64,000 bases of DNA from NCBI RefSeq assembly GCF_003918875.1, contig NW_025766975.1, forward strand, positions 994,684-1,058,683, written 5' to 3'. The notes under the pieces were generated by a model. That model ran no database searches, was not told where the DNA came from, and saw only the letters and a program-made list of their open reading frames with translations. Of this stretch, positions 12,545 to 53,265 are shown in pieces; within the stretch, counting starts at the first letter, position 1, and each line of letters opens with the position of its first letter. This stretch comes from Haliotis rubra (Eukaryota). The position numbers were made by a program, and so were the translations under genes.

Positions 12545-13818
12545 TACTTACCAGGCAAGTACTACCCAAATAGTTACCATGATTTGTGGCAATCAAGAAT
12601 CAATATTTAGCATGTTATGTGACAGTCAGGTACCTATATTTACCATGCTCTGTGAAATGCTCAGTGACAGTATAACATCACAGTTAGCATGTTCTGTGAC
12701 AGTCAGGTACCTATATTTACCATGCTCTGTGAAATGCCCAGTGACAGTATAACATCACAGTTAGCATGTTATGTGATGGTCAGGTACCTATATTTACCAT
12801 GCTCTGTGAAATGCTCAGTGACAGTATAACATCACAGTTAGCATGTTCTGTGACAGTCAGGTACCTATATTTACCATGCTCTGTGAAATGCTCAGTGACA
12901 GTATAACATCACAGTTAGCATGTTATGTGACAGTCAGGTACCTATATTTACCATGCTCTGTGAAATGCTCAGTGACAGTATAACATCACAGTTAGCATGT
13001 TCTGTGACAGTCAGGTACCTATATTTACCATGCTCTGTGAAATGCCCAGTGACAGTATAACATCACAGTTAGCATGTTATGTGATGGTCAGGTACCTATA
13101 TTTACCATGCTCTGTGAAATGCTCAGTGACAGTATAACATCACAGTTAGCATGTTCTGTGACAGTCAGGTACCTATATTTACCATGCTCTGTGAAATGCT
13201 CAGTGACAGTATAACATCACAGTTAGCATGTTATGTGACAGTCAGGTACCTATATTTACCATGCTCTGTGAAATGCTCAGTGACAGTATAACATCACAGT
13301 TAGCATGTTATGTGACAGTCAGGTACCTATATTTACCATGCTCTGTGAAATGCTCAGTGACAGTATAACATCACAGTTAGCATGTTATGTGACAGTCAGG
13401 TACCTATATTTACCATGCTCTGTGAAATGCTCAGTGACAGTATAACATCACAGTTAGCATGTTCTGTGACAGTCAGGTACCTATATTTACCATGCTCTGT
13501 GAAATGCTCAGTGACAGTATAACATCACAGTTAGCATGTTATGTGACAGTCAGGTACCTATATTTACCATGCTCTGTGAAATGCTCAGTGACAGTATAAC
13601 ATCACAGTTAGCATGTTCTGTGACAGTCAGGTACCTATATTTACCATGCTCTGTGAAATGCTCAGTGACAGTATAACATCACAGTTAGCATGTTATGTGA
13701 CAGTCAGGTACCTATATTTACCATGCTCTGTGAAATGCTCAGTGACAGTATAACATCACTGTGATGGTCAGTCATCAATAGTAGCCATGTTTTGTGACAG
13801 TTAAGTATCTATATTTAC
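12545..13818. repeat. Satellite D: 77-bp unit x about 16, abutting the donor of MVP exon 22
   Basis: period 77 measured (12681 to 12758); minus-strand unit ...CAGAGCATG|GTAAATATAGGTACCTGACTGTCAC... matches exon 22 end ...CAGGGCATG|GTAAATATAGATACTTAACTGTCAC. Confidence 0.85.
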
Positions 13819-13883
13819 CATGCCCTGTGTCTCCAGTCTAGCTTGATGTTCTATTGCCTCTGCCTCTGCCTTCAGTTTTGCAG
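13819..13883 (-). CDS. MVP: MVP exon 22 (cap-helix)
   Basis: gggttttttccag|CTGCAAAACTG ... GGCATG|gtaaat; encodes (A)AKLKAEAEAIEHQARLETQGM (cf. LQAKLKAQALAIETEAELQRVQK). Confidence 0.75.
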
Positions 13884-14074
13884 CTGGAAAAAACCCACAA
13901 ATTGCAAGAAAGAATGATATGCATAAGGTCAGTGCCCGCTTCAGTCCTCCTCTCCTAATTGTAAGTCATTTATCATTCAAGTCCTCATTCATTCTATGGA
14001 AACCTCAAAACTAAGCCATAGGATTCTGAACACAGCAGAAATCTGATATGAGGGAAATGTTCACTGAGCACTGC

Positions 14075-17000
14075 CCTGAATGACTGTTTGACCAGAAAAC
14101 TTTCTTCCATAAAAATCCATCTGTATCACACACAGCTCACCTTCAATCTCACTCTGACACTCTATAAGCATCCTCTCTGCCTGGGCCTCTATCACACACA
14201 GCTCACCTTCAATCTCACTCTGACACTCTATAAGTATCCTCTCAGCCTGGGCCTGCATCACAGCTCACCTTCAATCTCACTCTGACACTCTATAAGCATC
14301 CTCTCTGCCTGGGCCTGCATCACAACTCACCTTCAATCTCACTCTGACGCTCTATAAGCATCCTCTCAGCCTGGGCCTGTATCACACACAACTCACCTTC
14401 AATCTCACTCTGACACTCTATAAGCATCCTCTCAGCCTGGGCCTGCATCACAGCTCACCTTCAATCTCACTCTGACGCTCTATAAGCATCCTCTCAGCCT
14501 GGGCCTGTATCACACACAACTCACCTTCAATCTCACTCTGGCACTCTATAAGCATCCTCTCAGCCTGGGCCTGTATCACACACAGCTCACCTTCAATCTC
14601 ACTCTGACGCTCTATAAGCATCCTCTCAGCCTGGGCCTGTATCACACACAACTCACCTTCAATCTCACTCTGACGCTCTATAAGCATCCTCTCAGCCTGG
14701 GCCTGTATCACAGCTCACCTTCAATCTCACTCTGACGCTCTATAAGTATCCTCTCAGCCTGGGCCTGCATCACAACTCACCTTCAATCTCACTCTGACGC
14801 TCTATAAGCATCCTCTCAGCCTGGGCCTGCATCACAGCTCACCTTCAATCTCACTCTGATGCTCTATAAGCATCCTCTCAGCCTGGGCCTGTATCGCACA
14901 CAGCTCACCTTCAATCTCACTCTGACGCTCTATAAGCATCCTCTCAGCCTGGGCCTGCATCACAGCTCACCTTCAATCTCACTCTGACACTCTATAAGCA
15001 TCCTCTCAGCCTGGGCCTGTATCACACACAGCTCACCTTTCAATCTCACTCTGGCTCTATATAAGCATCCTCTCAGCCTGGGCCTGCATCACAACTCACC
15101 TCTTCAATCTCACTCTGACACTCTATAAGCATCCTCTCAGCCTGGGCCTGTATCACACACACAACTCACCTTCAATCTCACTCTGCCAGCTCTATAAGTA
15201 TCCTCTCAGCCTGGGCCTGTATCACACACAGCTCACCTTCAATCTCACTCTGACACTCTATAAGTATCCTCTCAGCCTGGGCCTCTATCACACACAGCTC
15301 ACCTTCAATCTCACTCTGACACTCTATAAGTATCCTCTCAGCCTGGGCCTGTATCACACACAGCTCACCTTCAATCTCACTCTGACACTCTATAAGTATC
15401 CTCTCAGCCTGGGCCTCTATCACACACAGCTCACCTTCAATCTCACTCTGACACTCTATAAGTATCCTCTCAGCCTGGGCCTCCTATCACACACAGCTCA
15501 CCTTCAATCTCACTCTGACACTCTATAAGTATCCTCTCAGCCTGGGCCTGTATCACACACAGCTCACCTTCAATCTCACTCTGACACTCTATAAGTATCC
15601 TCTCAGCCTGGGCCTGTATCACACACAGCTCACCTTCAATCTCACTCTGACACTCTATAAGCATCCTCTCAGCCTGGGCCTGCATCACAACTCACCTTCA
15701 ATCTCTCACTCTGACACTCTATAAGCATCCCTCTCAGCCTGGGCCTGTATCACACACAACTCACCTTCAATCTCACTCTGACGCTCTATCAGTATCCTCT
15801 CAGCCTGGGCCTGTATCACACACAGCTCACCTTCAATCTCTCACTCTGACACTCTATAAGTATCCTCTCAGCCTGGGCCTGTATCACACACAGCTCACCT
15901 TCAATCTCACTCTGACACTCTATAAGCATCCTCTCAGCCTGGGCCTGTATCACACACAGCTCACCTTCAATCTCACTCTGACACTCTATAAGTATCCTCT
16001 CAGCCTGGGCCTGTATCACACACAGCTCACCTTCAATCTCACTCTGACACTCTATAAGCATCCTCTCAGCCTGGGCCTCTATCACACACAGCTCACCTTC
16101 CAATCTCACTCTGACACTCTATAAGCATCCTCTCAGCCTGGGCCTCAGCTATCACACACAGCTCACCTTCAATCTCACTCCTGACACTCCTATAGGTATC
16201 CTCTCAGCCTGGGCCTGTATCACACACAGCTCACCTTCAATCCCACTCTGGCACTCTATAAACATCCTCTCAGCCTGGGCCTGTATCACAGCTCACCTTC
16301 AATCTCACTCTGACGCTCTATAAGCATCCTCTCAGCCTGGGCCTGCATCACAACTCACCTTCAATCTCACTCTGACGCTCTATAAGCATCCTCTCAGCCT
16401 GGGCCTGTATCACAGCTCACCTTCAATCTCACTCTGACACTCTATAAGCATCCTCTCTGCCTGGGCCTCTATCACACACAGCTCACCTTCAATCTCACTC
16501 TGGCTGCATCCTCTATAAAGTATCCTCTCAGCCTGGGCCTGTATCACACACAGCTCACCTTCAATCTCACTCTGACACTCTCACACAAGCATCCTCTCTG
16601 CCTGGGCCCTCCTATCACATAATGTCAGCTCACCTTCAATCTCACTCTGACCTCTGTAAGCATCCTCTCTGCCTGGGCCTCTATCACACACGTCTCACCT
16701 TTCAATCTCACTCTGACCTCTATAAGTATCCTCTCAGCCTGGGCCTGTATCACACACAGCCTCACCTTCAATCCTCACTCTGATACTCTATAAGCATCCT
16801 CTCTGCCTGGGCCTCTATCACACACAGCTCACCTTCAATCTCCTCCTGACCTCTATAGGTATCCTCTCAGCCTGGGCCTCTATCACACACAGCTCACCTT
16901 CAATTCTCACTCTCAGCCTGGTCTGTATCCTGTGGCTCTCACTCTGACACTCTATAAGTATCCTCTCTGCCTGGGCCTGTATCACACACAGCTCACCTTC

Positions 17001-20000
17001 AATCTCACTCTGACACTCTATAAGTATCCTCTCGGCCTGGGCCTGTCACACACAGCTCACCTTCAGTCTCACTCTGACACTCTATAGACGTCCTCTCTGC
17101 CTGGGCCTCTATCACACAGCTCACCCTTCACTCTCACTCTGACACTCTCTATGGTATCCTCTCTGCCTGGGCTCTGTATCACACACAGCTCACCTTCAAT
17201 CTCACTCTGACACTCTCTATAGTATCCTCAGCCTGGGCCTGTGTCACAGCTCACCTTCAATCTCACTCTGACACTCCTTATAAGCATCCATCTCTGCCTG
17301 GGCCTCTATCACAGCTCACCTTCATACCATTTTCTCTGACCACTCTGCAATGTCCTCCTCTCAGCCTGAGCCTGTATCACTGGCTCACCTTCCAATCTCA
17401 CTCTGTCCTCTATAAGCATCCCTCTCTGCCTGGGCCTGCATCTAACTCACCTTCCAATCTCACTCTGACGCTCTATAAGCATCCTCTCAGCCTGGGCCTG
17501 TATCCAAAACTCACCTTCAATCTCACTCCTGACACTCTATAAGCATCCTCTCAGCCTGGGCCTGCATCACAGCTCACCTTCAATCTCACTCTGACTCTCT
17601 ATAAAGCATCCTCTCAGCCTGGGCCTGTATCACAGCTCACCTTCAATCTCACTCTGACACTCTATAAGCATCCTCTCTGCCTGGGCCTCTATCACACACA
17701 GCTCACCTTCAATCTCACTCTGGCACTCTATAAGTATCCTCTCAGCCTGGGCCTGTATCACACACAGCTCACCTTCAATGTCACTCTGACACTCTATAAG
17801 TATCCTCTCAGCCTGGGCCTGTATCACACACAGCTCACCTTCAATCTCACTCTGACACTCTATAAGCATCCTCTCAGCCTGGGACTGCATCACAACTCAC
17901 CTTCAATCACTCTGACAATCTATAAAAGCATCCTCTCAGCCTGGGCCTGTATCACAGCTCACCTTCAATCTCACTCTGACACTCTATAGAAGCATCCTCT
18001 CTGCCTGGGCCTCTATCACAGCTCACCTCCAATCTCACTCTGGCTCTATAAGTATGTCCTCTCTGCCTGGGCCTGTATCACAGCTCACCTTCAATCTCAC
18101 TCTGACACTCTATAAGCATCCTCTCTGCCTGGGCCTCTATCACACACAGCTCACCTTCAATCTCACTCTGACACTCTATAAGTATCCTCTCAGCCTGGGC
18201 CTGTATCACAGCTCACCTTCAATCTCACTCTGACTCTCTATAAGTATCCTCTCAGCCTGGGCCTGCATCACAACTCACCTTCAATCTCACTCTGACACTC
18301 TATAAGCATCCTTTCAGCCTGGGACTGCATCACAACTCACCTTCAATCTCTCACTCTCATGACACAGCTCTATAAGCATCCTCTCAGCCTGGGACTGCAT
18401 CACAGCTCACCTTCAATCCTCACTCTGACACTCTATAAGCATCCCTCTCACCTGGGCCTGTATGTCACACAGCTCACCTTCAATCTCACTCTGACACTCA
18501 ATAAGCATCCCCTCAGCCTGGGCCTGTATCACACACAACTCACCTTCAATCCCTCTCTAGGCTCTATAAGGATCCTCTCAGCCTGGGCCTGTATCACACA
18601 GCTCACCTTCAATCCCACTCTGACTCTATAAGCATCCTGGGCCTGGGCCTGTATCACACACAGCTCACCACCTTCAATCTCACTCTGACACTCTATAAGC
18701 ATCCTCTCAGCCTGGGCCTGTATCACACACAGCTCAGCTTCAATCTCCTCTCTGGCTCTATAAGCATCCTCTCAGCCTGGGCCTGTATCACAACTCACCT
18801 TCAATCTCACTCTGACACTCTATAAGCATCCTCTCAGCCTGGGCCTGTATCACAGCTCACCTTCAATCTCACTCTGACGCTCTATAAGCATCCTCTCAGC
18901 CTGGGCCTGTATCACAACTCACCTTCAATCTCACTCTGGCACTCTATAAGCATCCTCTCACCCTGGGCCTGTATCACACACAGCTCACCTTCAATCTCAC
19001 TCTGACACTCAATAAGCATCCCCTCAGCCTGGGCCTGTATCACACACAACTCACCTTCAATCCCACTCTGACACTCTATAAGGATCCTCTCAGCCTGGGC
19101 CTGTATCACACACAGCTCACCTTCAATCCCACTCTGACACTCTATAAGCATCCCCTCAGCCTGGGCCTGTATCACACACAACTCACCTTCAATCCACTCT
19201 GACACTCTATAAGCATCCTCTCAGCCTGGGCCTGTATCACACACAGCTCACCTTCAATCTCACTCTGACGCTCTATAAACATCCTCTCAGCCTGGGCCTG
19301 TATCACAGCTCACCTTCAATCTCACTCTGACGCTCTATAAGTATCCTCTCAGCCTGGGCCTGTATCACACACAGCCTCACAGCTCACCTTCACATCTCAC
19401 TCTGACTCTCTATAAGCATCCTCTCAGCCTGGGCCTGTATCACACACAACTCACCTTCAATCTCACTCTGGCACTCTATAAGTATCCTCTCAGCTGGGCC
19501 TGTGTCACACAACTCACCTTCAATCTCACTCTGACACTCTATAAGTATCCTCTCAGCCTGGGCCTGTATCACACACAGCTCACCTTCAATCTCACTCTGA
19601 CACTCTATCAGCATCCTCTCAGCCTGGGCCTGTGTCACACAGCTCACCTTCCATCCACTGACTGGCTCTATAAGCATCCTCTCAGCCTGGGCCTGTATCA
19701 CACACAGCTTACCTTCAATCTCACTCTGGCAGTCTATAAGTATCCTCTCAGCCTGGGCCTCTATCACCACACAGCTCACCTTCAATCTCACTCCTGGCAC
19801 TCTATAAGCATCCTCTCGGCCCTGGGCCTGTGTCACACACAACTCACCTTCAATCTCGCTCTGGCACTCTATAAGGTATCCTCTCAGCCTGGGCCTCCCT
19901 ATCACACACGCTCTTCACCGTCTCACTCTGACACTCTATAAGTATCCTCTCGGCCTGGGCCTGTATCACACACAGCTCACCTTCAATCTCACTCTGACAC

Positions 20001-20420
20001 TCTATAAGTATCCTCTCAGCCTGGGCCTGTATCACACAGCTCACCTTCAATCTCACTCTGACACTCTAAGCATCCTCTCAGCCTGGGCCTGTATCACACA
20101 CACAAGCTCACCTTCAATCTCACTCCTGGCGCTCTATAAGCATCCTCTCAGCCTGGGCCTGTATCACACACAGCTCACCTTCAATCTCACTCTGACACTC
20201 TATAAACATCCTCTCAGCCTGGGCCTGTATCACAGCTCACCTTCAATCCCACTCTGACACTCTATAAACATCCTCTCAGCCTGGGCCTGTATCACAGCTC
20301 ACCTTCAATCTCACTCTGACACTCTATAAGCATCCTCTCAGCCTGGGCCTGTATCACACACAGCTCACCTTCAATCTCACTCTGGCACTCTATAAGCATC
20401 CTCTCAGCCTGGGCCTGTGC
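14075..20420. repeat. Satellite C: 62/66-bp unit x about 95-100 (~6.3 kb), starting at the donor of MVP exon 21
   Basis: period 66 measured (14131 to 14197); 62-bp variants lack CACA; minus-strand unit ATACAGGCCCAGGCTGAGAGGATGCTTATAGAGTGTCAGAGTGAGATTGAAG|GTGAGCTGTGTGTG = last 47 nt of exon 21 + consensus donor + 19 nt intron; in-frame (22 aa QAQAERMLIECQSEIEGELCVI); degenerate or frameshifted in 16100-17600 and 19390-19900. Confidence 0.9.
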
Positions 20421-20595
20421 TTCAGCTTTGGCTTGCCCAGTTGACTCAACAGCTGCAGCTATAGCACACAGATGCAGCAAGTTGGCCCTCTCCTTCTCTG
20501 CATCCTTCTCATTGGCCAGCTTCTGTCTCTCCAGCTGACCGCGTGCAGCCTGCTCAATCTTGTCAGCCTCATGGGCTGCTGCATTCTCTATGGAC
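20369..20595 (-). CDS. MVP: MVP exon 21 (shoulder/cap-helix start)
   Basis: tactgtacag|GTCCATAGAG ... GATTGAAG|gtgagc; encodes (K)SIENAAAHEADKIEQAARGQLERQKLANEKDAEKERANLLHLCAIAAAVESTGQAKAEAQAQAERMLIECQSEIE (cf. ...[61 protein letters not shown]). Confidence 0.8.
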
Positions 20596-20784: not shown

Positions 20785-22880
20785 TAATTTTTGGAGTAAA
20801 ATTGATATTTTATACTTATCCTGACTCATGCTCTTTTTGCTTGTCTTCTTCTTCTTGCGAACATAGTGGAACACTTGTATCTCCCTAATTGAAGCTCCCT
20901 TCAATTTAAAATCACTAATTAGTATTCACCACGAGTTACCTCCTTTCCACAAGCGCGGGAACGAGGGCGCCACCTCTACCCATGTGCCTCACTCTCTCCT
21001 CATATACTGAGCCCAACATTTGAATTTACAGGAAATCCAAAGTGTTATTTGGGGAGGATGGGAGGGGCTGACCTCATGAGTCAGGATAAGTATAAAATAT
21101 CAATTTTACTCCAAAATTACATATTTTCCTTATCCTGACTCATGCTCTTGCTTGTAGCATCCTACGGACGGAGGTGGGAATATCTAATACTTTGGATTTT
21201 TAATAATTAGTGATTTGAACTGTGATGATTGTAATAACCCTATGGGAACTTCATAAAGGCACTGAACTGATGAATTCCTGCTGCTAACTTATCAGCTGCC
21301 ATATATGTTAAAAGGTTATTACCATGTACTTATTATGATAAAGTATATATAACATTAATACAATGCTTAAGACTAATAGACTTAAGCTTGTTAATATGCT
21401 AGTATAAACTCCTTAGAGTTTGTTAGCTAAAATACTTTAAGATATAACATAGTACTAAGCTTAAGATATGATTAAACTTAAGCTAATTATATAATAGCAA
21501 ACTCTTTAGAGTTTGTTAGCTAATCTACTTATATGATATAGATATAGTGCTGAGCTTAAGATATGAATAAGCTTTAGCTACCTATATATATAATAGCAAA
21601 ACTCTGTAGAGTTTGTTAGCTAATATATTTTTATAATATGAGTATAGTACTATGCTTAAGGTATAATTAGCTTAAGTTACCTATATAATAGTAAAACTCC
21701 GTAGAGTTTGTTAGCTTAATTAACTTAAGCTATGTATAAAATAGCCAAAAACTCTGTAGAGTTTGTTAGCTAATGCATTTATCATGTAACCATAGTATTA
21801 CTCTTAAGATATGAATAACTTAAGGTAAATATATATAATAACAAACTCTGTAGAGTTGTTAACTTATATATTGTATGATGTAATAATCATAGTACTGTGA
21901 TGATAAAAGGAACTTAAGTAAATTATATATAGCATGAAGCTATTTAGTATTGTTATAAGATAAGTAAAAATCTGTTAGATTGACTTATCTTCTAAGAGGA
22001 ACTGTCAGCTGTTGTGCGAGGACCATGGGATCGAATTGGTGTATACCTGAGACGTCCTCCTGGTGGTGATATCTCTCAGATAATGGTTTGCAACCACCAT
22101 ATCGATTTCCAGAAATAAACCCTCCATTATTTCAATCACATTTGTGTAGAACAATTGTAGAAGTTAGCGCTATAATATCATGAGTATTAAGCTCATGGAG
22201 GGTCGGAATAGGTCCATCCGCATATGCACGTAGTATGACAGTTCTGATCCAAATGGAGATATAGTACATGAGACTTCACTCTGCGTAAGTTGATGATAGA
22301 GGAAATAATCTGTTGCATTTTTCCTCCTGTTTGGTTTGGTGGAGATAAATTTACAGTGCTCTTGCTGGCCATCTTGATAGAATCATCGTGATCATGGGGT
22401 CCAAGTATGTCATCCAGGCGGTTGTTCATAAACCCGGATCAGCAGCAGCATAAAAACGCAATCTGTAATAGTACAGAATTTTCATCAACGAATCCACTGA
22501 AACAAACACGCGCCCCGTGAATAAACTGTAGAAAAAAACGAATTAAATATCAATATATAATCGCTTGAAGGATACTAGCTAAACCTCTATAGATGTCTAT
22601 ACGAGGTAACTAACTAAATATAATTCAAAGGATATAGTGTGTCGGAGACACAGGCGCTTCTCACGTCCAGCTCACTGGGCGAAGAAGGAGAGAGTGAGGC
22701 ACATGGGTAGAGGTGGCGCCCTCGTTCCCGCGCTTGTGGAAAGGAGGTAACTCGTGGTGAATACTAATTAGTGATTTTAAATTGAAGGGAGCTTCAATTA
22801 GGGAGATACAAGTGTTCCACTATGTTCGCAAGAAGAAGAAGACAAGCAAAAAGAGCATGAGTCAGGATAAGGAAAAATTA
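20785..22880. mobile_element. TE1: ~2.1-kb non-autonomous foldback-like DNA element with ~230-bp terminal inverted repeats
   Basis: 20812-21040 is the reverse complement of 22660-22880 (CTTATCCTGACTCATGCTCTTTTTGCTTGTC...GGCGCCACCTCTACCCATGTGCCTCACTCTCTCC); subterminal hairpin CATGAGTCAGGATAAG...CTTATCCTGACTCATG; internal ~60-bp tandem array 21340-21900; shared with TE2. Confidence 0.75.
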
Positions 22881-23084
22881 ACAGTATGTAGAGTAAAAAA
22901 CATGAGAATGATATCATTCCATATTCTGCAACACAAAATCATCAACAATCAGTGTTTTCAGTAGCAACTGAACCTCCAATGACAGATGTGGTGAGCAAGG
23001 ACCCACTACTGGAGAACAATGACACGCAATAGAGCGAGAAACTGAATGTTCAGTCACCTTGTATGACCAGAAATGTTTGATTTG

Positions 23085-23278
23085 CTTGTTTGTTGTTTAA
23101 CATTGCACTCAGCAATATTCCAGCTGTAAGGTGGATAATTAATAATCAGATCTGGACAAGACAATCCAGTGATCAACATCATGAGCATCGATCTAAGCAA
23201 TTGGGATACGATGACATATGCCAACCAAGTCAGCGAGTCTGATCACCATTCCTCGCCTCTTATGACAAGCATGGGTTG
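23085..23278 (-). mobile_element. SINE-B copy, directly abutted by a SINE-A
   Basis: SINE-B body ends at ...GACAAGCATGGGTTGA then SINE-A begins. Confidence 0.6.
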
Positions 23279-23408
23279 ATATTCCAGCAATATCACAGCA
23301 GTGGACACCTGAAATGGGCTTCAAACATTGTACCCATGTGGGGAATCGAACTCTGGCCTTCAGCGTGACGAGCAAACGCTTAAAGCACTAGGTTACCCCA
23401 CCGCCCCT
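23279..23408 (-). mobile_element. SINE-A copy (tail-truncated)
   Basis: ATTCCAGCAATATCACAGCAGTGGACACCTGAAATGGGCTTCA...CCACCGCCCC. Confidence 0.65.
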
Positions 23409-23467
23409 GGACCACTACATCGGCAGACATAAAAGATGGTTGCTGAAAACAAATGTCAAGAACAAAC

Positions 23468-23568
23468 TTTGTAGCAATCTCTATGGCCATCTGTATTGAC
23501 TTGCTGAGGCTGTCCCTCATCTTCACGTCTGATGGCTCGATGCTCTGAACGTCGATACTGGTAATTAC
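23468..23568 (-). CDS. MVP: MVP exon 20
   Basis: atatcaccag|GTAATTACC ... ACAAA|gtttgt (weak donor); encodes [33 protein letters not shown](K) (cf. [33 protein letters not shown]). Confidence 0.65.
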
Positions 23569-23583
23569 CTGGTGATATAAAGG

Positions 23584-23750
23584 AGTGAGTGAGTGAGGTT
23601 TAGTTTTACACTGCTTTTATCACTATTCCTGCAATATCACCATGGTGGATACAAGAAATGGGCTGCACAAATTTCACGCCTTGGGGAACCAAATCCAAAT
23701 CTTTCGCGTGGCAAGAGAACGCTTTTAACCACTAGGCTACCCTAACGCCC
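23584..23750 (-). mobile_element. SINE-A copy
   Basis: (GAGT)n...CTTTTATCACTATTCCTGCAATATCACCATGGTGGATACAAGAAATGGGCTGCACA... Confidence 0.7.
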
Positions 23751-24312
23751 TGTGTAATATAAGGAAACACAGAATCAGCATTGTACTATTTGTAGAACTA
23801 AGGCCTGCAGAAACAACTGCTGACAGTGTCACAAAAATATACTACTGCCTGGGCAACTTATATCAGTCAACGATTTTTGCTGTGTGGCTATACATTAATA
23901 ACTCTAATCTCACCTCTTGTTGTTGTAAGAGTGAGTGAGTGAGTGAGTGAATGTTTCTCATTCTCTTACCATACAATTTCCCAAGCATCATGTAAGATTC
24001 AGCCTGTAAAAAAGATGCAGCAAAGACCCTTTCTCATTCCATTTCTTCATTTGGTTGCAAAAATTGTTTCGTTTTTTTAGTTTCTACAGAGAAACTGTTT
24101 TGATCAACATCATATAATTATACATCTAAACTTTGCTTACGTCAAAAGCTTACTGCATCAATGTATGTAATATGTGCAGTGAAAGTTCCGGAACTTATGG
24201 CGACATGTTTCTTAAGACACACAAGTGTCTTATGATATCCACAAGTATCTAATGACTTCTTAAGTATCAATCAAAGTTGTTTTAAGTTTAAGAGTCTAAT
24301 CCGTTCAAGGGT

Positions 24313-24544
24313 GCCATCCTATCTATAATGGAGAGCGGAAGGTCGCGGGTTCGATCCCCGACCGCGTCATACCAAAAGACGTTAAAATATGGTACTTGTT
24401 GGTCCCTGCCTGGCGTTCGGCATTAATGGGTACAACAAGGACTGCTCGGCTCGGAGTCAGTATAATGTGTCTGCGCATGCACGTCGTCATATGAGCGTAA
24501 TATTCTCAAGCACGACGTTAAACCCAATTTCACCTCACCTCACC
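24313..24544 (+). mobile_element. SINE-C copy (head-truncated)
   Basis: GAGAGCGGAAGGTCGCGGGTTCGATCCCCGACCGCGTCATACCAAAAGACG...CACCTCACCTCACC. Confidence 0.75.
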
Positions 24545-24681
24545 TATCTATAATCCAATATCAACACCCATCACAGTTTGTTCCATCACAGTGGCTCGAC
24601 AGTAAAAGAGCAGCAAACTAGCTTCAGCATCAGAGACATCAGCGATGGTATTTGATTGTGACGTGACGGTAACCAAAGAAT

Positions 24682-24841
24682 AAGTGAGTGATTTGGTCTT
24701 ATGCCGCTTTTAGCAGTATTCCAGCAATATCACGGCATGGGACACCAGAAATGGGCTTGATGCATTGTACACATGAACGGAATCGAACCCGGGTCTTCGG
24801 CGTGATGCTTAACCCACGACGCAACGCACTCCCACTGCCCG
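24682..24841 (-). mobile_element. SINE-A copy (degenerate)
   Basis: AGTGAGTGATTTGGTCTTATGCCGCTTTTAGCAGTATTCCAGCAATATCACGGCATGGGACACCAGAAATGGGCTTGA... Confidence 0.6.
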
Positions 24842-37688: not shown

Positions 37689-38375
37689 GGAAAAAATAAG
37701 AGATGTCAAGAGTCATATCATACACTCGCATACCTGTGCATAAATCAAAGAGGTCATATTGTGATTCACATTATTCAACTACAAAGGTGAAATTCTCTTC
37801 CCAGTCTCCACTTAAAAGTCTGATTTGATCGACCTACAATCCCTTCACAATGTCCAAGTTAATAAATGGGTGGATAGATACTCCTCACGATCTTCATTTT
37901 TCACAGTGTGGGATAGAGCTACTTCTCCTCATAATAGGCCCCGTAAGTCTCTCGAGGCGCTACTTCCAGTACTAAGCGACTTCCCGGCTCCCTTTGAGCA
38001 CGACAACGTCCGGGGCCCAGCTTACTTCTGGTACCACATTTCCAGTGACAAACGTATATTCAAGAACCAGGTCTGGTTCCAAATTGTTTGACCGCCAAAT
38101 ATGACTTTACTAGACCAGACCAAGTGTACAACCATGCTTGGCTGTCACAGCTGTTGACAGCCGTAATAGTTGGCTAATGTGGGAATGGTTAGATCGGAGA
38201 TTTGTTATTCCTGCAAGGAGTATCGGTTCCTTAATGTCAACTGACAACCATGAGTCCATTTGAAAAGTTATGAAATGTTGTGCCATAACCTACTTACAGG
38301 CCCTATACATTAGCAGGCTAGTATAGACCTACCAGGCTTTCACAATCTCCATTGCAAACTATGGGATAGCCCTAC

Positions 38376-38466
38376 CTTCTCTTCACAATCTCTACTTCAA
38401 TGGGTGGGATGTACTCCAGTGGTCCTCGGATCAGCCATAAATCACCTGGCTTTCTTTTTGGCTTTC
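38376..38466 (-). CDS. MVP: MVP exon 11
   Basis: ttttttacaacag|GAAAGCC ... AAGAGAAG|gtagggc; encodes (G)[29 protein letters not shown] (cf. [27 protein letters not shown]). Confidence 0.85.
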
Positions 38467-38589: not shown

Positions 38590-39140
38590 CATACAAATAT
38601 GGAATAACTGGTGTCTGCCTAATCACCCAATGTAGGCCGTCGACATAATTGAAAACATTGGGTGCAATGTTTTATGAGATATCGCATTTAAAAAAGTTTG
38701 AAAAGTGGTAAAAGTGTCGTGGTGACTTTGAAGATAAGGTCAAGGTCACCCAAATCAACAAGTGTCTCTGTAATCCCCCAATGTAGGCTGTCACCAAATT
38801 TGAAGACATTGCATGGCTACAACAGTCCATGAGATGTCGCGTTAACAAGAGTTTGAAAAGTGATCAAACTGTCATGGCGACCTTGAAGATAAGGCCAAGG
38901 TCATCCAAATAATCTGGTGTCTGCGTAATCCCCCAATGTAGGCTGTCACCCAATTTGAAGACGTTGGGTACAACAGTTCATGAGATATTGCATTAACAAG
39001 AGTTTGATAAGTGGTCAAAGTGTTATGTGCCCTTGAAAATAAGGTCAAGGTCACCCAAAATCGACTGGTGTCTGGGAAATCCCCAAATGTAGACTGTCAC
39101 CAAATTTGAAGACATTGGGTATAACAGTTCATGAGATATC
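38590..39140. repeat. 150-160-bp tandem repeat x about 3.5 (intron 11)
   Basis: AATCCCCCAATGTAGGCTGTCACC... recurs at 38621, 38763, 38924, 39075. Confidence 0.8.
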
Positions 39141-39588
39141 GCTTTAAAAAGATCCAGGATGTATGTACATACGTACGGACGCCGCCAAATACATAGTCCC
39201 CTGTTCCGCGTTGTGGAGGGGGACAATAAACAAGCTTCATGTGGCCTTATAATGATAAGTGCATTTGTAATGCGCTAAACTCCATTCCCTAGGTGAATTT
39301 CCAGTCAAGGATATGGATACAGACATTATACAGATTATTGAAAATCTGAAAGGATTGATTTGGAAGGAGTGGTGCATGAAGGATAATGTAACTCTCACAC
39401 CCAGACGTTTTCATTCTCTGTTCACATGTGAACTGAACTGATCGATGTTACAGTCGGTTGTAAGTACATAATTGCTATAGTATTGCTATACATTGTTTAT
39501 GGTAATGTGATGAATTTATGTGTCAGTTACAGTAATAGATGCTTAGCCCTAAAAATCTTAGCTTGGAATAAAGAGTAGTTATCATAAC

Positions 39589-39988: not shown

Positions 39989-39999
39989 ATCATAACCTT

Positions 40000-40385: not shown

Positions 40386-40434
40386 TCATGTTATCACTGA
40401 GCATACCTTTAAATAATATCATATCTGTGCATAC

Positions 40435-40536
40435 CTTTAAACATATCGTCAGTGAAGGCTCCCTTGGCCTGGAGGACAAGGCTCTCGTCAGCTGACAAGA
40501 CGTGGGTGTTCTGTATGCCATCCTCAAGCCTCTCGC
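40435..40536 (-). CDS. MVP: MVP exon 10
   Basis: ctatgtttag|GCGAGAGG ... TTTAAAG|gtatgc; encodes (G)ERLEDGIQNTHVLSADESLVLQAKGAFTDDMFK (cf. [36 protein letters not shown]). Confidence 0.8.
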
Positions 40537-41497: not shown

Positions 41498-41519
41498 CCA
41501 CCAACACAGACTGCACCTA

Positions 41520-42440
41520 CAATACCTACATGCAAAGCATCTACACCAACATCATGTATCTTCACTACCTACACCATCAACATCGACATTGTTAAAAACA
41601 CTTACATCAACATCATGGGCATCAACATCAACATCTGTCAGGCAACATCAACTTTATTTATACTTACACGAACATTATCTACACCAACAGCATTGTCTGT
41701 ACCCATACTGTCTTCACCAACAGCAATGACGGCACCCACACTGTCTACACCAACAGCATCTACACCTACATCATCTATATCAACAGCATTGACGGCACCT
41801 ACACCAACAGCATCTACACCTACATCATCTATATCAACGGCAATGACGGCACCTACACCAACAGCATCTACACCTACATCATCTATATCAACAGCAATGA
41901 CTGCACCCACACTGCCTTCACCAACAGCAATGACGGCACCTACACTGTCTAGACCAACATCATCTACACCTACATCATCTATATCAACAGCAATGACTGC
42001 TACCACAGTGGTAAAAAATATCAATGAATATTGGGTCAACACCATTATCATCTACAGCAACAGCATTGACTGCACCCAGATTGTCTACATCAACAGCATC
42101 AACAGCTTCCACATCTACACCAACTGCACTGACTGCACCCACACTTTCTTCACCAACTGCATCTACACCTACATCACCAATATCAACCGCACTGACTGGG
42201 CACACACTGTATCAACAGCACCTACACCTACATTAACTACACCAACAAAATTGTCTACAACAGCAGCATCTACATCTTCATCATCTACACCAACAGCATT
42301 GACTGAACCCAAATTGTCCACAACAACAGCATCCACATGTACATCAACAACAGTGAATGCATCAACATTGTCTACAACAGCATCTACATCAACTTCAGTA
42401 ACATTATTTAAAACTTTACATTCTCTACAGGTATAATCAC
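41520..42440. repeat. 54-bp CA-rich minisatellite (intron 8)
   Basis: period 54 measured (ACGGCACCTA at 41801 and 41855); unit ACACCAACAGCATCTACACCTACATCATCTATATCAACAGCAATGACGGCACCT; produces a spurious 324-aa Thr/Pro/Ser-rich ORF on +. Confidence 0.8.
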
Positions 42441-46730: not shown

Positions 46731-46822
46731 TTTCCTTCGTTATCATAACAGTCCTGAATGGCCCGTAGATTGAGGGAATCTCCATTCCTGATGATGAACG
46801 GCTGCACAATCTTCACAACCTC
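46731..46822 (-). CDS. MVP: MVP exon 5
   Basis: tcctacag|GAGGTT ... GGAAA|gtaagg; encodes EVVKIVQPFIIRNGDSLNLRAIQDCYDNEG (cf. [30 protein letters not shown]). Confidence 0.85.
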
Positions 46823-47024
46823 CTGTAGGATGACAACAATCATAACAATTACTGATCAGGTTTACTGAACATGATACTTGATGACATATATGAAAGTATG
46901 TGAAATCAAATAATTAATATATAATAACATCACACTTTGGGTGTATGAACTGGTCAGTACTAACAGCTATCTGCTTCAATTACCTTAACAATTAGGACAA
47001 AATCTAATGATGTTTCAGTCTTCT

Positions 47025-49665
47025 CACCATTGCAGCTCTAGAAATGTGGTCTACTCGCCACATCAGCTCTAGCAATGTGGTCTACTCGCCACATCAGCTC
47101 TAGGAATGTGGCCTACTCAACACATCAGCTCTAGGAATGTAGGTTACTCAACACATAAGCTCTAGGAATGTAGGCAACTCGCCACATCAGCTCTAGGAAT
47201 GTGGTGTACTCAACAGCTCAGCTCTAGGAATTTGGTCTACTTGCCACATCAGCTCTAGGAATGTGGTCTCTCGCCACATCAGCTCAACACATAGGCTCTA
47301 GGAATGTGGTCTACTCGCCACATCAGCTCTAGGAATGTGGTCTACTCAACATATCAGCTCTAGGAATGTGGTCTACTCAACACATAGGCTCTAGGAATGT
47401 GGTCTACTCAACACATCAGCTCTAGGAATGTGGCCACATCAGCTCTAGGAATGTGGTCTACTCAACATATCAGCTCTAGGAATGTGGTCTACTCACCACA
47501 TCGGCTCTAGGAATGTGGTCTACTCAACACATCAGCTCTAGGGATGTAGCTTAGTCACCACATCAGCTCTAGGGATGTAGCCTACTCAGCTCTAGGAATG
47601 TAGGTTACTCACAACATCAGCTCTAGGAATGTGGCCTACTCACCACATCAGCTCTAGGGATGTAGGCTACTCACATCAGCTCTAGTAATGTGGGTTACTC
47701 ACCACATCAGCTCCAGGAATGTAGGCTACTCACCACATCATCTCTAGGAATGTAGGCTACTCACCACATTAGCTCCAGTGATGTAGGCTACTCACCACAT
47801 CATATCTCTAGGAATGTGGGTTACTCACCACATCAGCTCTAGGAATGTGGGTTACTCACCACATCAGCTGTAGGGATGTAGGTTACTCACCACGTCAGCT
47901 CTAGGAATGCAGGCTACTCACCACATCAGCTCTAGGCATGTAGGCTACTCACCACATCAGCTCTAGGGATGTAGGCTACTCACCACATCAGCTCTAGGAA
48001 TGTGGGTTACTCACCACATCAGCTCTAGGAATGTGGGTTACTCACCACATCAGCTCCAGGAATGTAGGCTACTCGACACATCAGCTGTAGGTATGAAGGT
48101 TACTCACCACATCAGCTCTAGGAATGTAGGCTACTCACCCACATCAGTTCTAGGAATGTAGGCTACTCACCACATCAGCTCTAGGAATGTGGGTTACTCA
48201 CCACATCAGCTGTAGGGATGTAGGTTACTCACCACATCAGCTCTAGGAATGCAGGCTACTCACCACATCATCTCTAGGCATGTAGGCTACTCACCACATC
48301 AGCTCTAGGGATGTAGGCTACTCACCACATCAGCTCTAGGAATTTGGGTTACTCACCACATCAGCTCTAGGAATGTGGGTTACTCACCACATCAGCTCCA
48401 GGAATGTAGGCTACTCGACACATCAGCTGTAGGGATGAAGGTTACTCACCACATCAGCTCTAGGGATGTAGGCTACTCACCACATCAGCTCTAGGAATGT
48501 AGGCTACTCACCACATCAGTTCTAGGAATGTGGTTTACTCACCACATCAGCTCTAGGAATGTGGTTTACTCACCACATCAGCTCTAGGAATGTGGGTTAC
48601 TCAACACATCAGCTCTAGGAATGTAGGCTACTCACCACATCAGCTCTAGGAATGTGGGTTACTCACCACATCAGCTCTAGGAATGTAGGCTACTCACCAC
48701 ATCAGTTCTAGGAATGTAGGCTAATCACCACATCAGCTCTAGGAATGTAGCCTACTCACCACATCAGCTCCAGGCTACTCACCACATCAGCTAGGAATGT
48801 AGGCTACTCATCACATCAGCTCTAGGAATGTAGGCTACTCACCACATCAGCTCTAGGAATGTAGGCTACTCACCACATCAGCTCTAGGGATGTAGGCTAC
48901 TCAACACATCAGCTCTAGGAATGTAGGCTACTCACCACATCAGCTCTAGGAATGTAGGCTACTCACTACGTCAGGTCTAGGAATGTGGGTTTCTCACCAC
49001 ATCATCTCTAGGAATGTAGGCTACTCACCACATCAGCTCTAGGAATGTAGCCTACTCACCACATCAGCTCTAGAAATGTAGGCTACTCATCACATCAGCT
49101 CTAGGAATGTAGGCTACTCACCACATCAGCTCTAGGAATGTAGGCTACTCACCACATCAGCTCTAGGGATGTAGGCTACTCACCACATCAGCTCTAGGAA
49201 TGTAGGCTACTCACCACATCAGCTCTAGGAATGTAGGCTACTCACCACATCAGCTCTAGGGATGTAGGCTACTCACCACATCAGCTCTAGGGATGTAGGC
49301 TACTCACCACATCAGCTCTAGGAATGCAGGCTACTCACCACATCAGCTCTAGGGATGCAGGCTACTCCCCACATCAGCTCTAGGTATGTAGGCTACTCAC
49401 CACATCAGCTCTAGGAATGTGGGTTTCTCACGTCAGCTCTAGGGATGTAGGCTACTCACCACATCAGCTGTAAGGATGTAGGCTACTCACCACGTCAGCT
49501 CTAGGGATGTAGCCTACTCAACACATCAGTTCTAGGAATGTAGCCTACCCCAATCAGCTCTAGGAATGTAGGCTCATCACCACGTCAGCTCTAGGGATGT
49601 AGGCTCATCACCACATCAGCTCTAGGGATGTAGGCTACTCACCACATCAGCTCTAGGGATGTAGG
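47025..49665. repeat. Satellite B: 31-bp unit x about 85 (~2.6 kb), starting at the donor of MVP exon 4
   Basis: period 31 measured (48841 to 48872); minus-strand unit CCTACATYCCTAGAGCTGATGTG|GTGAGTAG = last 23 nt of exon 4 (..YIPRADV) + GTGAGTAG donor. Confidence 0.9.
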
Positions 49666-49867
49666 TCAGTGGTCCAGGCAGCTGCCACATCTCCTCTTCC
49701 TTCCTCTTCACCCCAGAGTCCTCCAGGTCAAAGAGGGCACGGAGGCGGATTGCATGGTTGGCATTGATAACAGGGAGGGGACGGACAGCCTTCTGGTACT
49801 GACCTCTCTGCTGGACGTATTCTGGGGCCAGCGTGAGTGATTCTCCTGGGTAGAGAGGGAATGGGTC
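49643..49867 (-). CDS. MVP: MVP exon 4 (vault repeat)
   Basis: ttcttccttgcag|GACCCA ... GATGTG|gtgagtag; encodes [75 protein letters not shown] (cf. [63 protein letters not shown]). Confidence 0.9.
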
Positions 49868-50143
49868 CTGCAAGGAAGAAGAGAGATTCAGGCTATCATG
49901 AAGACATAAAGTATCTGCAGTATGTTGTGAACAAAAAAGAAGAGAATAGTAAAGAGGACTGTTTCTGTTTGACTCATTTTGTCCTCCATCACTGAAAACA
50001 TTTGTCCATAAATATATCCACAAGCATGACCCCAGATGATTCAGCAACATGCAAGACTCATGACGACGCATATCATGTACCGTGCCAAGATAAGATAAAG
50101 TATAATTCAACACCACAGTCAGATGCAGGACTTTGGATAATGC

Positions 50144-50380
50144 CAGTGTATGAAATAAGGCCCGTCCGACCGCCCGAGACGGGCTAGATTTCAGCCGGAC
50201 AGTCTAATTTTACAGCTAGCCAGCCCGATGGACGGGTGGAAAAAACTATTCAAATAACATGTCCACTGATGCTGTCTATCTAGTATTTAAGAAGGACTGG
50301 TTAAATCTCTTCTGGGTTGGTAAGTTTTTGGAGTTACCAGCCCAGATGTCGGGCTGGGTTTTGGGCTTATTTCATACACT
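50144..50380. mobile_element. hAT-like MITE (~237 bp) with 8-bp target-site duplication
   Basis: TIRs CAGTGTATGAAATAAGGCCC / GGGCTTATTTCATACACT(G); flanked by GATAATGC at 50136-50143 and 50381-50388. Confidence 0.7.
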
Positions 50381-50803
50381 GATAATGCACTTCAATGCTA
50401 GACTTGTTTGATGTCTGACACCACACCATACAACAGAATTCATTCCACAACTAGAGGACAGAAACTGGTTTACTTAAATTATGTAGTAATAATGTACCTA
50501 CTTAATATGAAGTTGGACATGCTCAAGTTACATGGAATTATCTCCAATCAACCAATCACACACACTAATTGTTTTAAGGTACCACTCTCAGAATATCCCT
50601 ATCAAATGTTCTGTAGTAAATATGAAAATCAATTCCAGCAATTAGTGCTAGATCATTTTTCACACAGGTCCTCACTTTTCAAGAAGGTCCATTGCTGAAG
50701 TTAAATTTGGCAATTTTGTAATAATGTCACTTTGACCTATGTGTCTTGGAGGAGGCACCATGGTATCTAAAGGCAAATGTGTCATTTGATTGAAGTCACC
50801 TAC

Positions 50804-50867
50804 CTGATGAAGTCTTACTTCCTTGTGTCCAAGTTTGAGCTCACATGCCTTGCCTGCCTCATAGTGG
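50804..50867 (-). CDS. MVP: MVP exon 3
   Basis: gtttctcttctag|CCACTAT ... CATCAG|gtaggt; encodes (S)HYEAGKACELKLGHKEVRLHQ (cf. [29 protein letters not shown]). Confidence 0.75.
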
Positions 50868-51040
50868 CTAGAAGAGAAACAGCAAAGCATTAAACAAAAC
50901 CCATCTTCATCAACACCTAGAAATATGCTTGTGTATAGCCAGGTCAAAAGCAATGGCTCAGAGATTGTGATTAGTCTTGCTAGATTACCTACCAGACTTG
51001 ATGCAAACATTTAGTAGGAGTACATATATTGGGAGATCAA

Positions 51041-53265
51041 CACCTGTTAGGTGACCGAGATGACCTCACCTCATGGGGTCTGTGATGATGTTATGGTGAC
51101 CGAGATGACCTCACCTCATGGGGTCTGTGATGATGTTATGGTGACCAAGACTACCTCACCTGATGGGGTCTGTGATGGTGTTATGGTGACTGAGATTACC
51201 TCACCTGATGGGGTCTGTGATGGTGTTATCGTGGCTGAGATGACCTCACCTGATGGGGTCTGTGACACTGTTATCGTGACTGAGATGACCTCACCTGATT
51301 GGGTCTGTGATGCTGTTATGTTGACCGAGATGACCTCACCTGATGGGGTCTGTGATGCTGTTATGGTGACCGAGATGACCTCACCTGATGGGGTCTGTGA
51401 TGGTGTTATGGTGACCGAGATTACCTCACCTGATGGGGTCTGTGATGCTGTTAGGGTGACCGAGATGACCTCACCTCATGGGGTCTGTGATGCTGTTATC
51501 GTGACTGAGATGACCTCACCTGATGGGGTCTGTGATGTGTAATCATGACCGAGATGACCTCACCTGATGGGGTCTGTGACGGTGTTATCGTGACTGAGAT
51601 GACCTCACCTGATGGGGTCTGTGATGCTGTTATGGTGACCGAGATGACCTCACCTGATGGGGTCTGTGATGCTGTTGAAGTGACTGAGATGACCTCACCT
51701 GATGGGGTCTGTGATGCTGTTATTGTGACTGAGATGACCTCACCTGATGGGGTCTGTGATGCTGATGAAGTGATCTGAGATGACCTCACCTGATGGGGTC
51801 TGTGATGCTATTATAGTGACTGAGATGACCTCATCTGATGGGGTCTGTGTGATGCTGTTATCGTGGACCAAGATTACCCTCACCTGATGGGGTCTGTGAT
51901 GCTGTACCTATCGGACTGAGATGACCTCACCTGATGGGGTCTGTGATGTATTATCATGACTGAGATGACCTCACCTGATGGGGTCTGTGATGCTATTATG
52001 ATCGTGACTGACCTCACCTGATGGGGTCTGTGATGCTGTTATGGTGACTGAGATGACCTCACCTGATGGGGTCTGTGACACTGATGAAGTGATCAAGATG
52101 ACCTCACCTGATGGGGTCTGTGATGATGTTATGGTGACCGAGATGACCTCACCTGATGGGGTCTGTGATGATGTTATGGTGACTGAGATGACCTCACCTG
52201 ATGGGGTCTGTAATGCTGTTATCATGACCAAGATGACCTCACCTGATGGGGTCTGTGATGCTGTTATGGTGACTGAGATGACCTCACCTGATGGGGTCTG
52301 TGATGCTGTTATCGTGACTGAGATGACCTCACCTGATGGGGTCTGTGATGCTGTTATCGTGACCAAGATGACCTCACCTGATGGGGTCTGTGATGCTGTT
52401 ATCATGACCAAGATGACCTCACCTGATGGGGTCTGTAATGCTGTTATCGTGACTGAGATGACCTCACCTCATGGGGTCTGTAATGCTGGTGACTACCTTA
52501 TGCTATTATGGTGACTGAGATGACCTCACCTGATGGGGTCTGTGATGCTGTTATCGTGACCGAGATGACCTCACCTGATGGGGTCTGTGATGCTATTATG
52601 GTGACTGAGATGACCTCACCTCATGGGGTCTGTGATGCTGTTATCGTGACCAAGATGACCTCACCTGATGGGGTCTGTGATGCTGTTATGGTGACTGAGA
52701 TGACCTCACCTGATGGGGTCTGTGATGATGTTATGGTGACCGAGATGACCTCACCTGATGGGGTCTGTGATGATGTTATGGTGACCGAGATTACCTCACC
52801 TGATGGGGTCTGTGATGCTATTATGGTGACCGAGATTACCTCACATGATGGGGTCTGTGATGGTGTTATGGTGACCGAGATGACCTCACCTGATGGGGTC
52901 TGTGATGCTGTTATCGTGACTGAGATGACCTCACCTGATGGGGTCTGTGATGATGTTATGGTGACCGAGATGACCTCACCTGATGGGGTCTGTGATGATG
53001 TTATGGTGACCGAGATTACCTCACCTGATGGGGTCTGTGATGCTGTTATGGTGACCGAGATGACCTCACCTGATGGGGTCTGTGATGATGTTATGGTGAC
53101 CGAGATGACCTCACCTGATGGGGTCTGTGATGATGTTATGGTGACCGAGATTACCTCACCTGATGGGGTCTGTGATGCTATTATGGTGACCGAGATTACC
53201 TCACATGATGGGGTCTGTGATGCTGTTATCGTGACCAAGATGACCTCACCTGATGGGGTCTGTGA
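51041..53265. repeat. Satellite A: 45-bp unit x about 49 (~2.2 kb), starting at the donor of MVP exon 2
   Basis: period 45 measured (52741 to 52786); minus-strand unit TCACAGACCCCATCAG|GTGAGGTCATCTCGGTCACCATAACAKCA = last 16 nt of exon 2 (..VTDPI) + CAG|GTGAGG donor + 29 nt intron; irregular segment 51780-52040. Confidence 0.9.

Follow-up and report, generated by a model that had tools for sequence, protein, structure and literature searches.

Minisatellites that reiterate an exon–intron junction have been described in single human genes. In intron 7 of F7, the first monomer of a 37-bp variable number of tandem repeats (VNTR) spans the exon–intron boundary, and only the most upstream of the 5–9 identical donors is used; when the first donor is lost, the pseudo-sites are functional (Borensztajn et al. 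2006, PMC1557585). Here we examine a 64,000-nt stretch of the genome of the blacklip abalone Haliotis rubra (contig NW_025766975.1, positions 994,684 to 1,058,683 of the forward strand; hereafter the window), in which the gene for major vault protein (MVP) carries four such arrays in four of its introns. A first-pass annotation of the window, made from the sequence alone, had described them as tandem arrays of an exon tail plus its 5' splice site. Each proves to be a further case of the class known from human genes: units of ~10–100 bp are arranged head to tail, the first unit contains the exon 3' end and the authentic donor, and the donor is reiterated. Since single human-gene precedents are known (PMC1557585), the phenomenon itself is already described, and each array taken singly is ordinary, another example of a known curiosity. 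It is the density, persistence and recurrence of the pattern in MVP that form the interesting part, and in these respects the observation is broader than the first-pass annotation saw, whose interpretation is borne out in part.

The likeness to F7 lies in an authentic donor followed by identical pseudo-donors, of which the most upstream is predicted to be the one used in abalone. F7 has 5–9 copies with 4 nt of exon per unit in one intron, whereas the abalone arrays have 15–96 copies with 11–46 nt of exon per unit, lie at four junctions of one gene, and are shared or recurrent across species. As cited in PMC1557585, a 12-bp minisatellite at exon 2/intron 2 of human IFI6 (6-16) reiterates the donor ~25 times in tandem from the authentic site (Turri et al. 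1995); in abalone MVP, by contrast, nearly all decoys would give a premature stop, and only the first decoy of one array, that with a 66-bp unit, is in frame. The introduction of PMC1557585 also lists a 31-bp VNTR in CBS intron 13, a 100-bp repeat in LMNB2 and an 81-bp repeat in PDGF intron 4, all presented there as reiterating an exon–intron junction, and the LMNB2 repeat is said to cover most of an intron, as the abalone arrays do. These cases, as listed, differ in having one array per gene and in being mammalian; a cross-species or multi-junction pattern was not found in the literature. Nor did we find a genome-wide or molluscan account of donor-anchored arrays in a literature search of incomplete coverage; in the TSSK1-like gene of H. 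discus hannai, intron 3 contains a 27-bp minisatellite (~62 copies) that is polymorphic in length and for which anchoring is not stated (PMC6905558).

Two related processes involve the same kind of mutation. Introns can be gained when a segment containing AGGT is duplicated in tandem (Hellsten et al. 2011, PMC3265369; potato RNA-dependent RNA polymerase, PMC4974935), and this process starts in the same way: the duplication copies splice signals, and splicing renders it harmless. There, however, an exonic duplication yields a new intron, whereas the abalone introns are ancient and the duplication merely lengthens them. Internal tandem repeats at exon–intron boundaries of primate segmental-duplication genes (De Grassi and Ciccarelli 2009, PMC2812944) likewise overlap these boundaries and change intron structure, but their effects reach the mature transcript and include new introns in young paralogues, while the abalone coding sequence is unchanged.

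The gene model on which the junctions rest was obtained by transferring the exact H. asinina gene structure onto the window, H. asinina MVP-like being the best match among database proteins; a rough tblastn map had first placed MVP on the minus strand and was then replaced by the database proteins. The work covers one gene family, with one assembly per species. The gene lies as follows:

10420 to 54307, minus strand: MVP, from start to stop codon; 26 coding exons, 861 amino acids (aa), an intact open reading frame (ORF), all introns GT-AG.

The model protein is 100% identical to XP_046574866.1 and shares 96% identity with H. asinina and 90% with H. rufescens and H. cracherodii; Pfam Vault domains are on record for MVP homologues. 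Exons 2, 4, 22 and 23 end at 53250, 49643, 20369 and 13819. Arrays were called with Tandem Repeats Finder (TRF), which places the four of interest where they had been reported, with periods of 45, 31, 66 and 77 (33) bp, 15–97 copies and 85–97% matches. The junctions and their arrays are listed below, a slash marking the exon–intron border.

53250 to 53383, minus strand: exon 2; its last ~40 nt (TCCCTCCTGGTCACTACATCAGTGTCACAGACCCCATCAG) plus GTGAG are the template of the 45-bp unit; authentic donor CAG/GTGAGG at 53249.
51044 to 53265, minus strand: 45-bp array, ~49 copies, starting 16 nt inside exon 2 and ending 176 nt short of exon 3.
49643 to 49867, minus strand: exon 4; the 31-bp unit is the exon's last 23 nt (CCTACATCCCTAGAGCTGATGTG) followed by GTGAGTAG.
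47033 to 49665, minus strand: 31-bp array, ~86 copies, starting 23 nt inside exon 4 and ending 210 nt short of exon 5.
20369 to 20595, minus strand: exon 22; the 66-bp unit joins the exon's last 46 nt to the first 20 intron nt (GTGAGCTGTGTGTGATACAG), with ACAG at both borders.
14121 to 20418, minus strand: 66/62-bp array, 96–97 copies over 6.3 kb, starting 50 nt inside exon 22 and ending 237 nt short of exon 23.
13819 to 13883, minus strand: exon 23; its last 11 nt (CACAGGGCATG) and the donor GTAAAT open the 33-bp junction unit.
12517 to 13829, minus strand: exon-23 junction array, 15 copies of a 77-bp higher-order unit (12607 to 13759) between degenerate 33-bp-type units.

Together the four arrays sum to 12.3 kb, or 28% of the 43.9-kb gene. 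On the minus strand, the exons end ...GACCCCATCAG/GTGAGG (exon 2), ...GCTGATGTG/GTGAGT (exon 4), ...GAGATTGAAG/GTGAGC (exon 22) and ...CAGGGCATG/GTAAAT (exon 23), so that the 26-exon model bears out the donor motifs given earlier (CAG/GTGAGG, GTG/GTGAGT, AAG/GTGAGC and ATG/GTAAAT). Anchoring on the exon–donor junctions holds as well: three arrays begin 16, 23 and 50 nt inside their exon, and the 77-bp array joins exon 23 through degenerate copies. The donor-position GT is retained in ~200 units (94%, 68%, 96% and 100% of those in the 45-, 31-, 66- and 77-bp arrays, respectively), which upholds the claim that the pre-mRNA would contain hundreds of decoy donors. The exact authentic 9-mer is present in 160 units across the four arrays, including 37 of 47 units of the 45-bp array (CAGGTGAGG) and 47 of 79 units of the 31-bp array. 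The GC content of the 45-, 31- and 66-bp arrays is 0.49–0.50, exon-like, versus 0.40 in the remaining intron sequence. Between array and acceptor there remain 176–636 nt in H. rubra and 123–415 nt in the other species, the short H. asinina intron-4 array excepted. Copy numbers and the 62/66-bp alternation may be imprecise because the H. rubra assembly is a long-read hybrid, described in PMC6774278 as built in part from noisy long reads.

Two details of unit anatomy needed revision. All four units had been read as an exon tail, a donor and a piece of intron start. Exon tail and donor stand, but in the 45-bp unit the supposed intron start is itself a diverged exon tail, and the unit comprises ~40 nt of exon plus GTGAG. 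The H. rubra unit matches the authentic exon plus GTGAG segment at 35 of 45 positions, its 5' 24 nt can be aligned on their own (p = 0.008), and the two North Pacific species, H. rufescens and H. cracherodii, clearly have a unit of 40 exon nt followed by GTGAG. The 77-bp unit is junction-derived, as proposed, but is not a simple unit: it is a higher-order repeat (33+32+12 nt) of a 33-bp junction unit, CACAGAGCATG/GTAACTATTGATGCTTGACTGT (z = 16). As a separate observation, the 66-bp unit (14121 to 20418, minus strand) forms an ORF in phase with exon 22, QAQAERMLIECQSEIEGELCVI repeated, which the 62-bp variants break; because of this in-phase ORF, tblastn places MVP residues 729–783 dozens of times within the intron-22 array.

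The clearest view of how such an array arises comes from intron 22. In H. asinina this intron is 240 nt long, has no array, and reads gtgagttgtatatgatacag/agggacttttatggaag. The 66-bp array, found only in H. rubra and absent from the other three abalone species, terminates ...gtgagctgtgtgtgatacag/atggatttttatggaag, and the sequence downstream matches H. asinina intron 22. Because H. asinina retains the unexpanded intron, we can state that 46 nt of exon and the first 20 nt of intron were amplified ~96-fold. The amplified segment is bordered by ACAG microhomology, in the exon and in the intron. Amplification of a junction-spanning segment at the DNA level, which the first-pass annotation had put forward, is thus shown for the 66-bp array.

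Comparison of the orthologues extends the pattern to three other abalone genes and adds junction copies at exons 10 and 11. In H. rubra these are:

40397 to 40447, minus strand: exon-10 junction with one extra tandem copy, GATATGTTTAAAG/GTATGCACAGATAT then GATATTATTTAAAGGTATGCTCAG.
37793 to 38410, minus strand: exon-11 junction with degenerate relics, the first directly after the donor (38323 to 38357) and others at 37793 to 37935.

The exon 2 and exon 4 arrays have orthologues in all four species (H. rubra, H. asinina, H. rufescens and H. cracherodii). Three of the four also have the exon 23 array, which in H. cracherodii and H. rufescens is a 33-bp array of 34–86 copies; H. asinina has only a relic. 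Exon 10 has exactly one extra junction copy in all four. At exon 11, H. rufescens and H. cracherodii carry 26–52 copies of a 34/43-bp unit (ATCCCACCTATTGAAGTGGAGATAGTGAAGAGAAG/GTAGGTCT), and H. rubra and H. asinina degenerate relics only. Across the four species the arrays start 11–50 nt inside the exon, and copy numbers differ strongly. The arrays were first taken for four independent events; those of exons 2, 4 and 23 are instead common to the genus. The exon 2, 4, 11 and 23 junction arrays would then predate the split of the sampled species, and the exon 22 array would be a new birth in the H. rubra lineage.

Divergence of the 45-bp units is 0.07–0.08 within H. rubra, H. rufescens or H. cracherodii and 0.26–0.28 between the two clades, and the units do not separate the sister species H. 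rufescens and H. cracherodii. The junction-array units evolve in concert. A further observation concerns the second H. rufescens RefSeq isoform (X2, 759 aa), which begins at Met102 in exon 4, downstream of the exon 2 array; either a promoter within the gene or mis-splicing of transcripts in the arrays upstream may account for it.

These comparisons leave little room for the idea that a dispersed satellite or transposon family was inserted beside the exons, with an incidental resemblance to their ends, or that the arrays are artefacts of assembly. Noisy long reads did contribute to the H. rubra assembly, according to PMC6774278, and one family of 95-bp repeats in the window is truly dispersed, occurring in two introns. 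The same arrays, however, are found in four independent assemblies of four species, and H. asinina preserves an unexpanded junction. The exon ends are ancient, since nine mollusc MVP genes share their intron positions, and the exon tails code for conserved residues, which speaks against exon ends that lie inside an inserted satellite copy. When dimers of the array units were searched against the masked window and all fetched loci, matches occurred at cognate junctions only, which rules out a dispersed-satellite identity within that set. We regard insertion or artefact as very improbable.

Our preferred explanation is that the arrays are junction-spanning minisatellites, produced by DNA-level amplification across the donor and tolerated through use of the first donor; we consider this probably correct. 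At birth, slippage or microhomology-mediated repair would probably have made a head-to-tail duplicate of the exon 3' end, the 5' splice site and the first intron bases. Growth and turnover would follow by unequal exchange or replication slippage, as for any minisatellite, and concerted evolution, the higher-order repeat and species-specific copy numbers all point to such turnover. Tolerance would arise because the first donor alone is contiguous with the body of the exon and the spliceosome takes the most upstream of identical donors; equivalent duplications within exons would be purged by selection. The human F7 experiments and the annotated proteins suggest that abalone, too, uses the first donor: in all four species the first-donor model yields an intact protein identical to the RefSeq/GenBank entry.

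What would happen if a later donor were used can be read from the arrays. Read-through past each authentic donor reaches an in-frame stop within 3–75 nt, so that use of a later donor would add intron sequence with an in-frame stop, and nonsense-mediated decay would presumably clear the transcript. Only the first decoy of the 66-bp array would escape this, as it is in frame and would add exactly 22 residues to the coiled-coil region. A recursive splice site is a zero-length exon, with an AG/GTRAGT core behind a polypyrimidine tract and a branch point. Of the six reiterated junctions, four have the AG/GT core (the 45-bp unit, the 66-bp unit and the copies at exons 10 and 11); the 31- and 77-bp units read TG/GT and lack it, and pyrimidine tracts are poor. 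Decoys with AG/GT could act as zero-length recursive splice sites and leave the mRNA unchanged.

That the arrays are kept for a function of their reiterated donors is a distinct proposal. Candidate functions are recruitment of the U1 small nuclear ribonucleoprotein against premature cleavage and polyadenylation, a boost to the authentic donor, recursive removal of the intron, and tuning of MVP output through decoy splicing and decay. Persistence at the same junctions throughout the genus, retention of GT in 68–100% of H. rubra array units, and the recursive-site core at four of the six junctions would fit such a role. Yet conservation of the decoy donor core (0.92–0.95) is no better than that of the rest of the unit (0.90–0.93), which argues against selection on the decoys, and the idea that they are selected was rejected on this ground. 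Presence and size also vary freely, the 66-bp array being absent in three species, the exon-11 copies reduced to relics in two and the exon-23 array nearly gone in H. asinina, whose gene is half as long (22 kb, versus 43.9 kb in H. rubra) and whose protein is still intact. As the arrays come and go so freely between species, we judge a selected function improbable. Weak authentic donors in need of help were likewise rejected, as match scores at array junctions and other junctions are the same (6.67 versus 6.74 of 9).

Amplification and first-donor use, our preferred explanation, account for tolerance of the arrays; they do not fully account for their concentration at donors. The first-pass annotation had counted four of four large arrays as anchored and called this unlikely by chance. 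The count is really four of five, as a fifth array longer than 1 kb (95 bp × 14, intron 14) is not anchored, but the improbability holds: when eight arrays of at least 250 bp were placed at random in the non-array part of the gene, at least four spanned a donor in 5.6e-4 of trials. The arrays of the gene that served as controls, with a relative of one of them, are:

29791 to 31151, no strand: AT-rich 95-bp array, 14 copies, in intron 14; not junction-derived (donor/acceptor query scores 12/19).
21406 to 21931, no strand: relative of the 95-bp array, in intron 21 (donor/acceptor query scores 17/11).
38606 to 39152, no strand: 151-bp × 3.6 array in intron 10; not junction-derived.
41678 to 42299, no strand: 15/33/54-bp arrays in intron 8, ~1 kb from the donor, without detectable similarity to the exon 8 junction.

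Enrichment was also assessed with a uniform criterion, in which arrays had a period of at least 10 and at least 2.5 copies and were called anchored when a junction query spanning -30 to +8 scored at least 30 inside the array. By this measure, 4 of 12 arrays are donor-anchored in H. rubra, versus 0.60 expected (P = 0.0018), with 4 of 9 in H. rufescens (P = 8e-5) and 4 of 10 in H. cracherodii (P = 5e-5); owing to common ancestry, the three abalone tests are not independent. In a scan of all junctions, the donor query outscored all 24 non-cognate introns at junctions 2, 4, 10, 11, 22 and 23, and the acceptor query never did so at any of 100 abalone junctions. Exact MVP gene models built for five further molluscs and one annelid show that donor anchoring is not confined to abalone (J gives the orthologous junction):

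Gigantopelta, intron 23 (J22): 78/156-bp units, ~10 copies of the 156-bp period, donor-anchored.
Patella, intron 6 (J6): 50 bp × 11, donor-anchored.
Patella, intron 10 (J10): one extra junction copy, similar to abalone exon 10.
Ostrea, intron 8 (J8): 37/74-bp units, donor-anchored.
Ostrea, intron 11 (J11): 58 bp × 2.5, donor-anchored.
Ostrea, intron 13 (J13): one extra junction copy.
Liolophura (chiton), intron 11 (J11): 77 bp × 37, donor-anchored.
Liolophura (chiton), intron 22 (J23): 36 bp × 6, donor-anchored.

No donor-anchored arrays were found in MVP of Littorina or the annelid Owenia. Among the non-abalone molluscs, 6 of 44 arrays are donor-anchored versus 2.3 expected (P = 0.026), and 3 of 44 are acceptor-anchored versus the same 2.3, which is not significant. 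Non-random anchoring is repeated in three other abalone genomes and in four other mollusc lineages. Furthermore, the six junctions affected in abalone account for five of the eight strong non-abalone events (P = 0.023, post hoc), and for 7 of 11 when weak events are included (P = 0.006, post hoc). Because unit borders differ between lineages, recurrent birth is favoured over inheritance.

Several of these results weigh against the simple form of our preferred explanation. Uniform birth with a tolerance filter predicts donor arrays in proportion to their share of the sequence, and an excess is seen; with 4 against 0.6 and 6 against 2.3, something further must favour donors, whether in the birth, the growth or the retention of arrays. 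The simple model also has no account of why the anchored arrays are the largest, and it does not predict the recurrence at orthologous junctions in distant lineages (post hoc P = 0.006–0.02). In addition, first-donor use in abalone is drawn from predicted proteins and mammalian precedent.

A junction-targeted mutational process would supply such a bias: in molluscs, and above all in abalone, tandem duplications would arise or expand preferentially at 5' splice sites, driven by polymerase pausing, R-loops, transcription–replication conflict at spliceosome-bound DNA, or some sequence property of the donor region. Donors are enriched in H. rubra, H. rufescens, H. cracherodii and the non-abalone molluscs while acceptors are not, the anchored arrays are the largest in the gene, and J10, J11, J22 and J23 each carry events in two or three lineages, whose origins look independent because the unit borders differ. 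The drivers themselves, however, fare poorly. Coding-strand GC skew varies in sign and size between arrays (-0.23, +0.13, +0.50, 0.01), for which reason an R-loop or G-skew cause was rejected, and hairpin-driven slippage was rejected because single-stranded DNA folding of unit multimers shows no consistent hairpin potential and is no better than in shuffles (z from -2.6 to +1.3), the 33-bp unit weakly excepted. Exon tails at hit junctions are no richer in internal direct repeats than those at other junctions, so that pre-existing repeats were also rejected as the cause, and donor strength at hit junctions is ordinary. Littorina and Owenia lack donor-anchored arrays, a single gene was sampled, and the recurrence test is post hoc. 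Taken together, a junction-targeted process seems unlikely. Nor does anything point to the splicing- or transcription-coupled event that the first-pass annotation had raised among possible causes (inconsistent GC skew, no consistent hairpins, a donor core without extra conservation, ordinary donors), and we found no evidence in this analysis for a splicing-coupled mechanism or for a function of the arrays. More broadly, we advance only as a tentative possibility that mollusc donor junctions, most strongly those of abalone, are genome-wide minisatellite hot spots, through mutational or retention bias, that act repeatedly on the same orthologous junctions.

Other repeats in these genes behave differently or call for separate mention. 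The 95-bp family (GC 0.26) in introns 14 and 21 looks dispersed and is probably transposon-borne, unlike the junction arrays. An orthologue of the intron 8 array is present in H. rufescens and H. cracherodii; a junction origin was rejected for the intron 8 and intron 17 arrays, which show no similarity to their own junctions. Intron 14 also contains a 12-bp array (CCTTCGCGAACG) at 33769 to 33837 and 33955 to 33980, based on the palindrome TTCGCGAA. Outside MVP, the minus strand of a 30-bp × 4 array (6236 to 6361) holds a donor-like GTGTGAGTCC, to which no adjoining exon or homologue could be assigned.

Arrays at 3' splice sites also occur in the wider family. The clearest acceptor-anchored array is in Liolophura intron 19, where the units include a pyrimidine tract, AG and 28 nt of exon head; others are found in Ostrea introns 9, 18 and 19 and in Owenia intron 9, where a 426-bp × 3 repeat extends 72 nt into the next exon. 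On the acceptor side, the annotated mRNA would require use of the last copy. Gigantopelta intron 11 holds a 3.4-kb array (21337 to 24782; 40-bp units, 82 copies) that starts 140 nt past the donor and has no similarity to either junction, so that large non-anchored arrays exist in the MVP family as well.

No host genes were called on either side of MVP in the window or in the H. asinina flanks, only transposon fragments, and protein searches returned no abalone orthologues of the gene that neighbours MVP in Patella (START domain). Transposon remnants around MVP lie at 2860 to 3762 (minus strand), 56878 to 57357 (plus strand) and 61250 to 61654 (minus strand). One flank remnant is a 300-aa ORF that resembles a fragment of a non-long-terminal-repeat reverse transcriptase, and two flank ORFs resemble the N-termini of Tc1/mariner-type transposases (RTGRPRVTT motif). 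A short dispersed repeat, with at least four plus-strand ORF copies (4054 to 4224, 10306 to 10722, 58933 to 59133 and 60754 to 61047), translates as ...LLITGLSG.DSIIYRPPPY.WNIAECGVKLNSLT... and is probably an element of the short interspersed type; one copy overlaps the region of the last MVP exon on the opposite strand.

In conclusion, the four arrays are unusual when taken together, as one gene carries four of them with ~200 decoys and the same gene shows the pattern in five mollusc lineages. Abalone MVP offers a natural test bed for how the spliceosome selects one donor among up to 96 identical ones. In such genes, software for gene prediction or RNA alignment can assign an exon end to a wrong copy of the repeat. 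Intron and gene length can double between congeners by this route alone, as in the 22-kb and 44-kb genes of H. asinina and H. rubra. The pattern may also reflect a bias in the sites at which minisatellites originate or are retained, and such a bias is measurable genome-wide in existing abalone assemblies. If donor junctions were indeed hot spots, the bias would act across lineages that have been split since the origin of the mollusc classes, and it could make a gene twice as long and give a single pre-mRNA hundreds of decoy donors.

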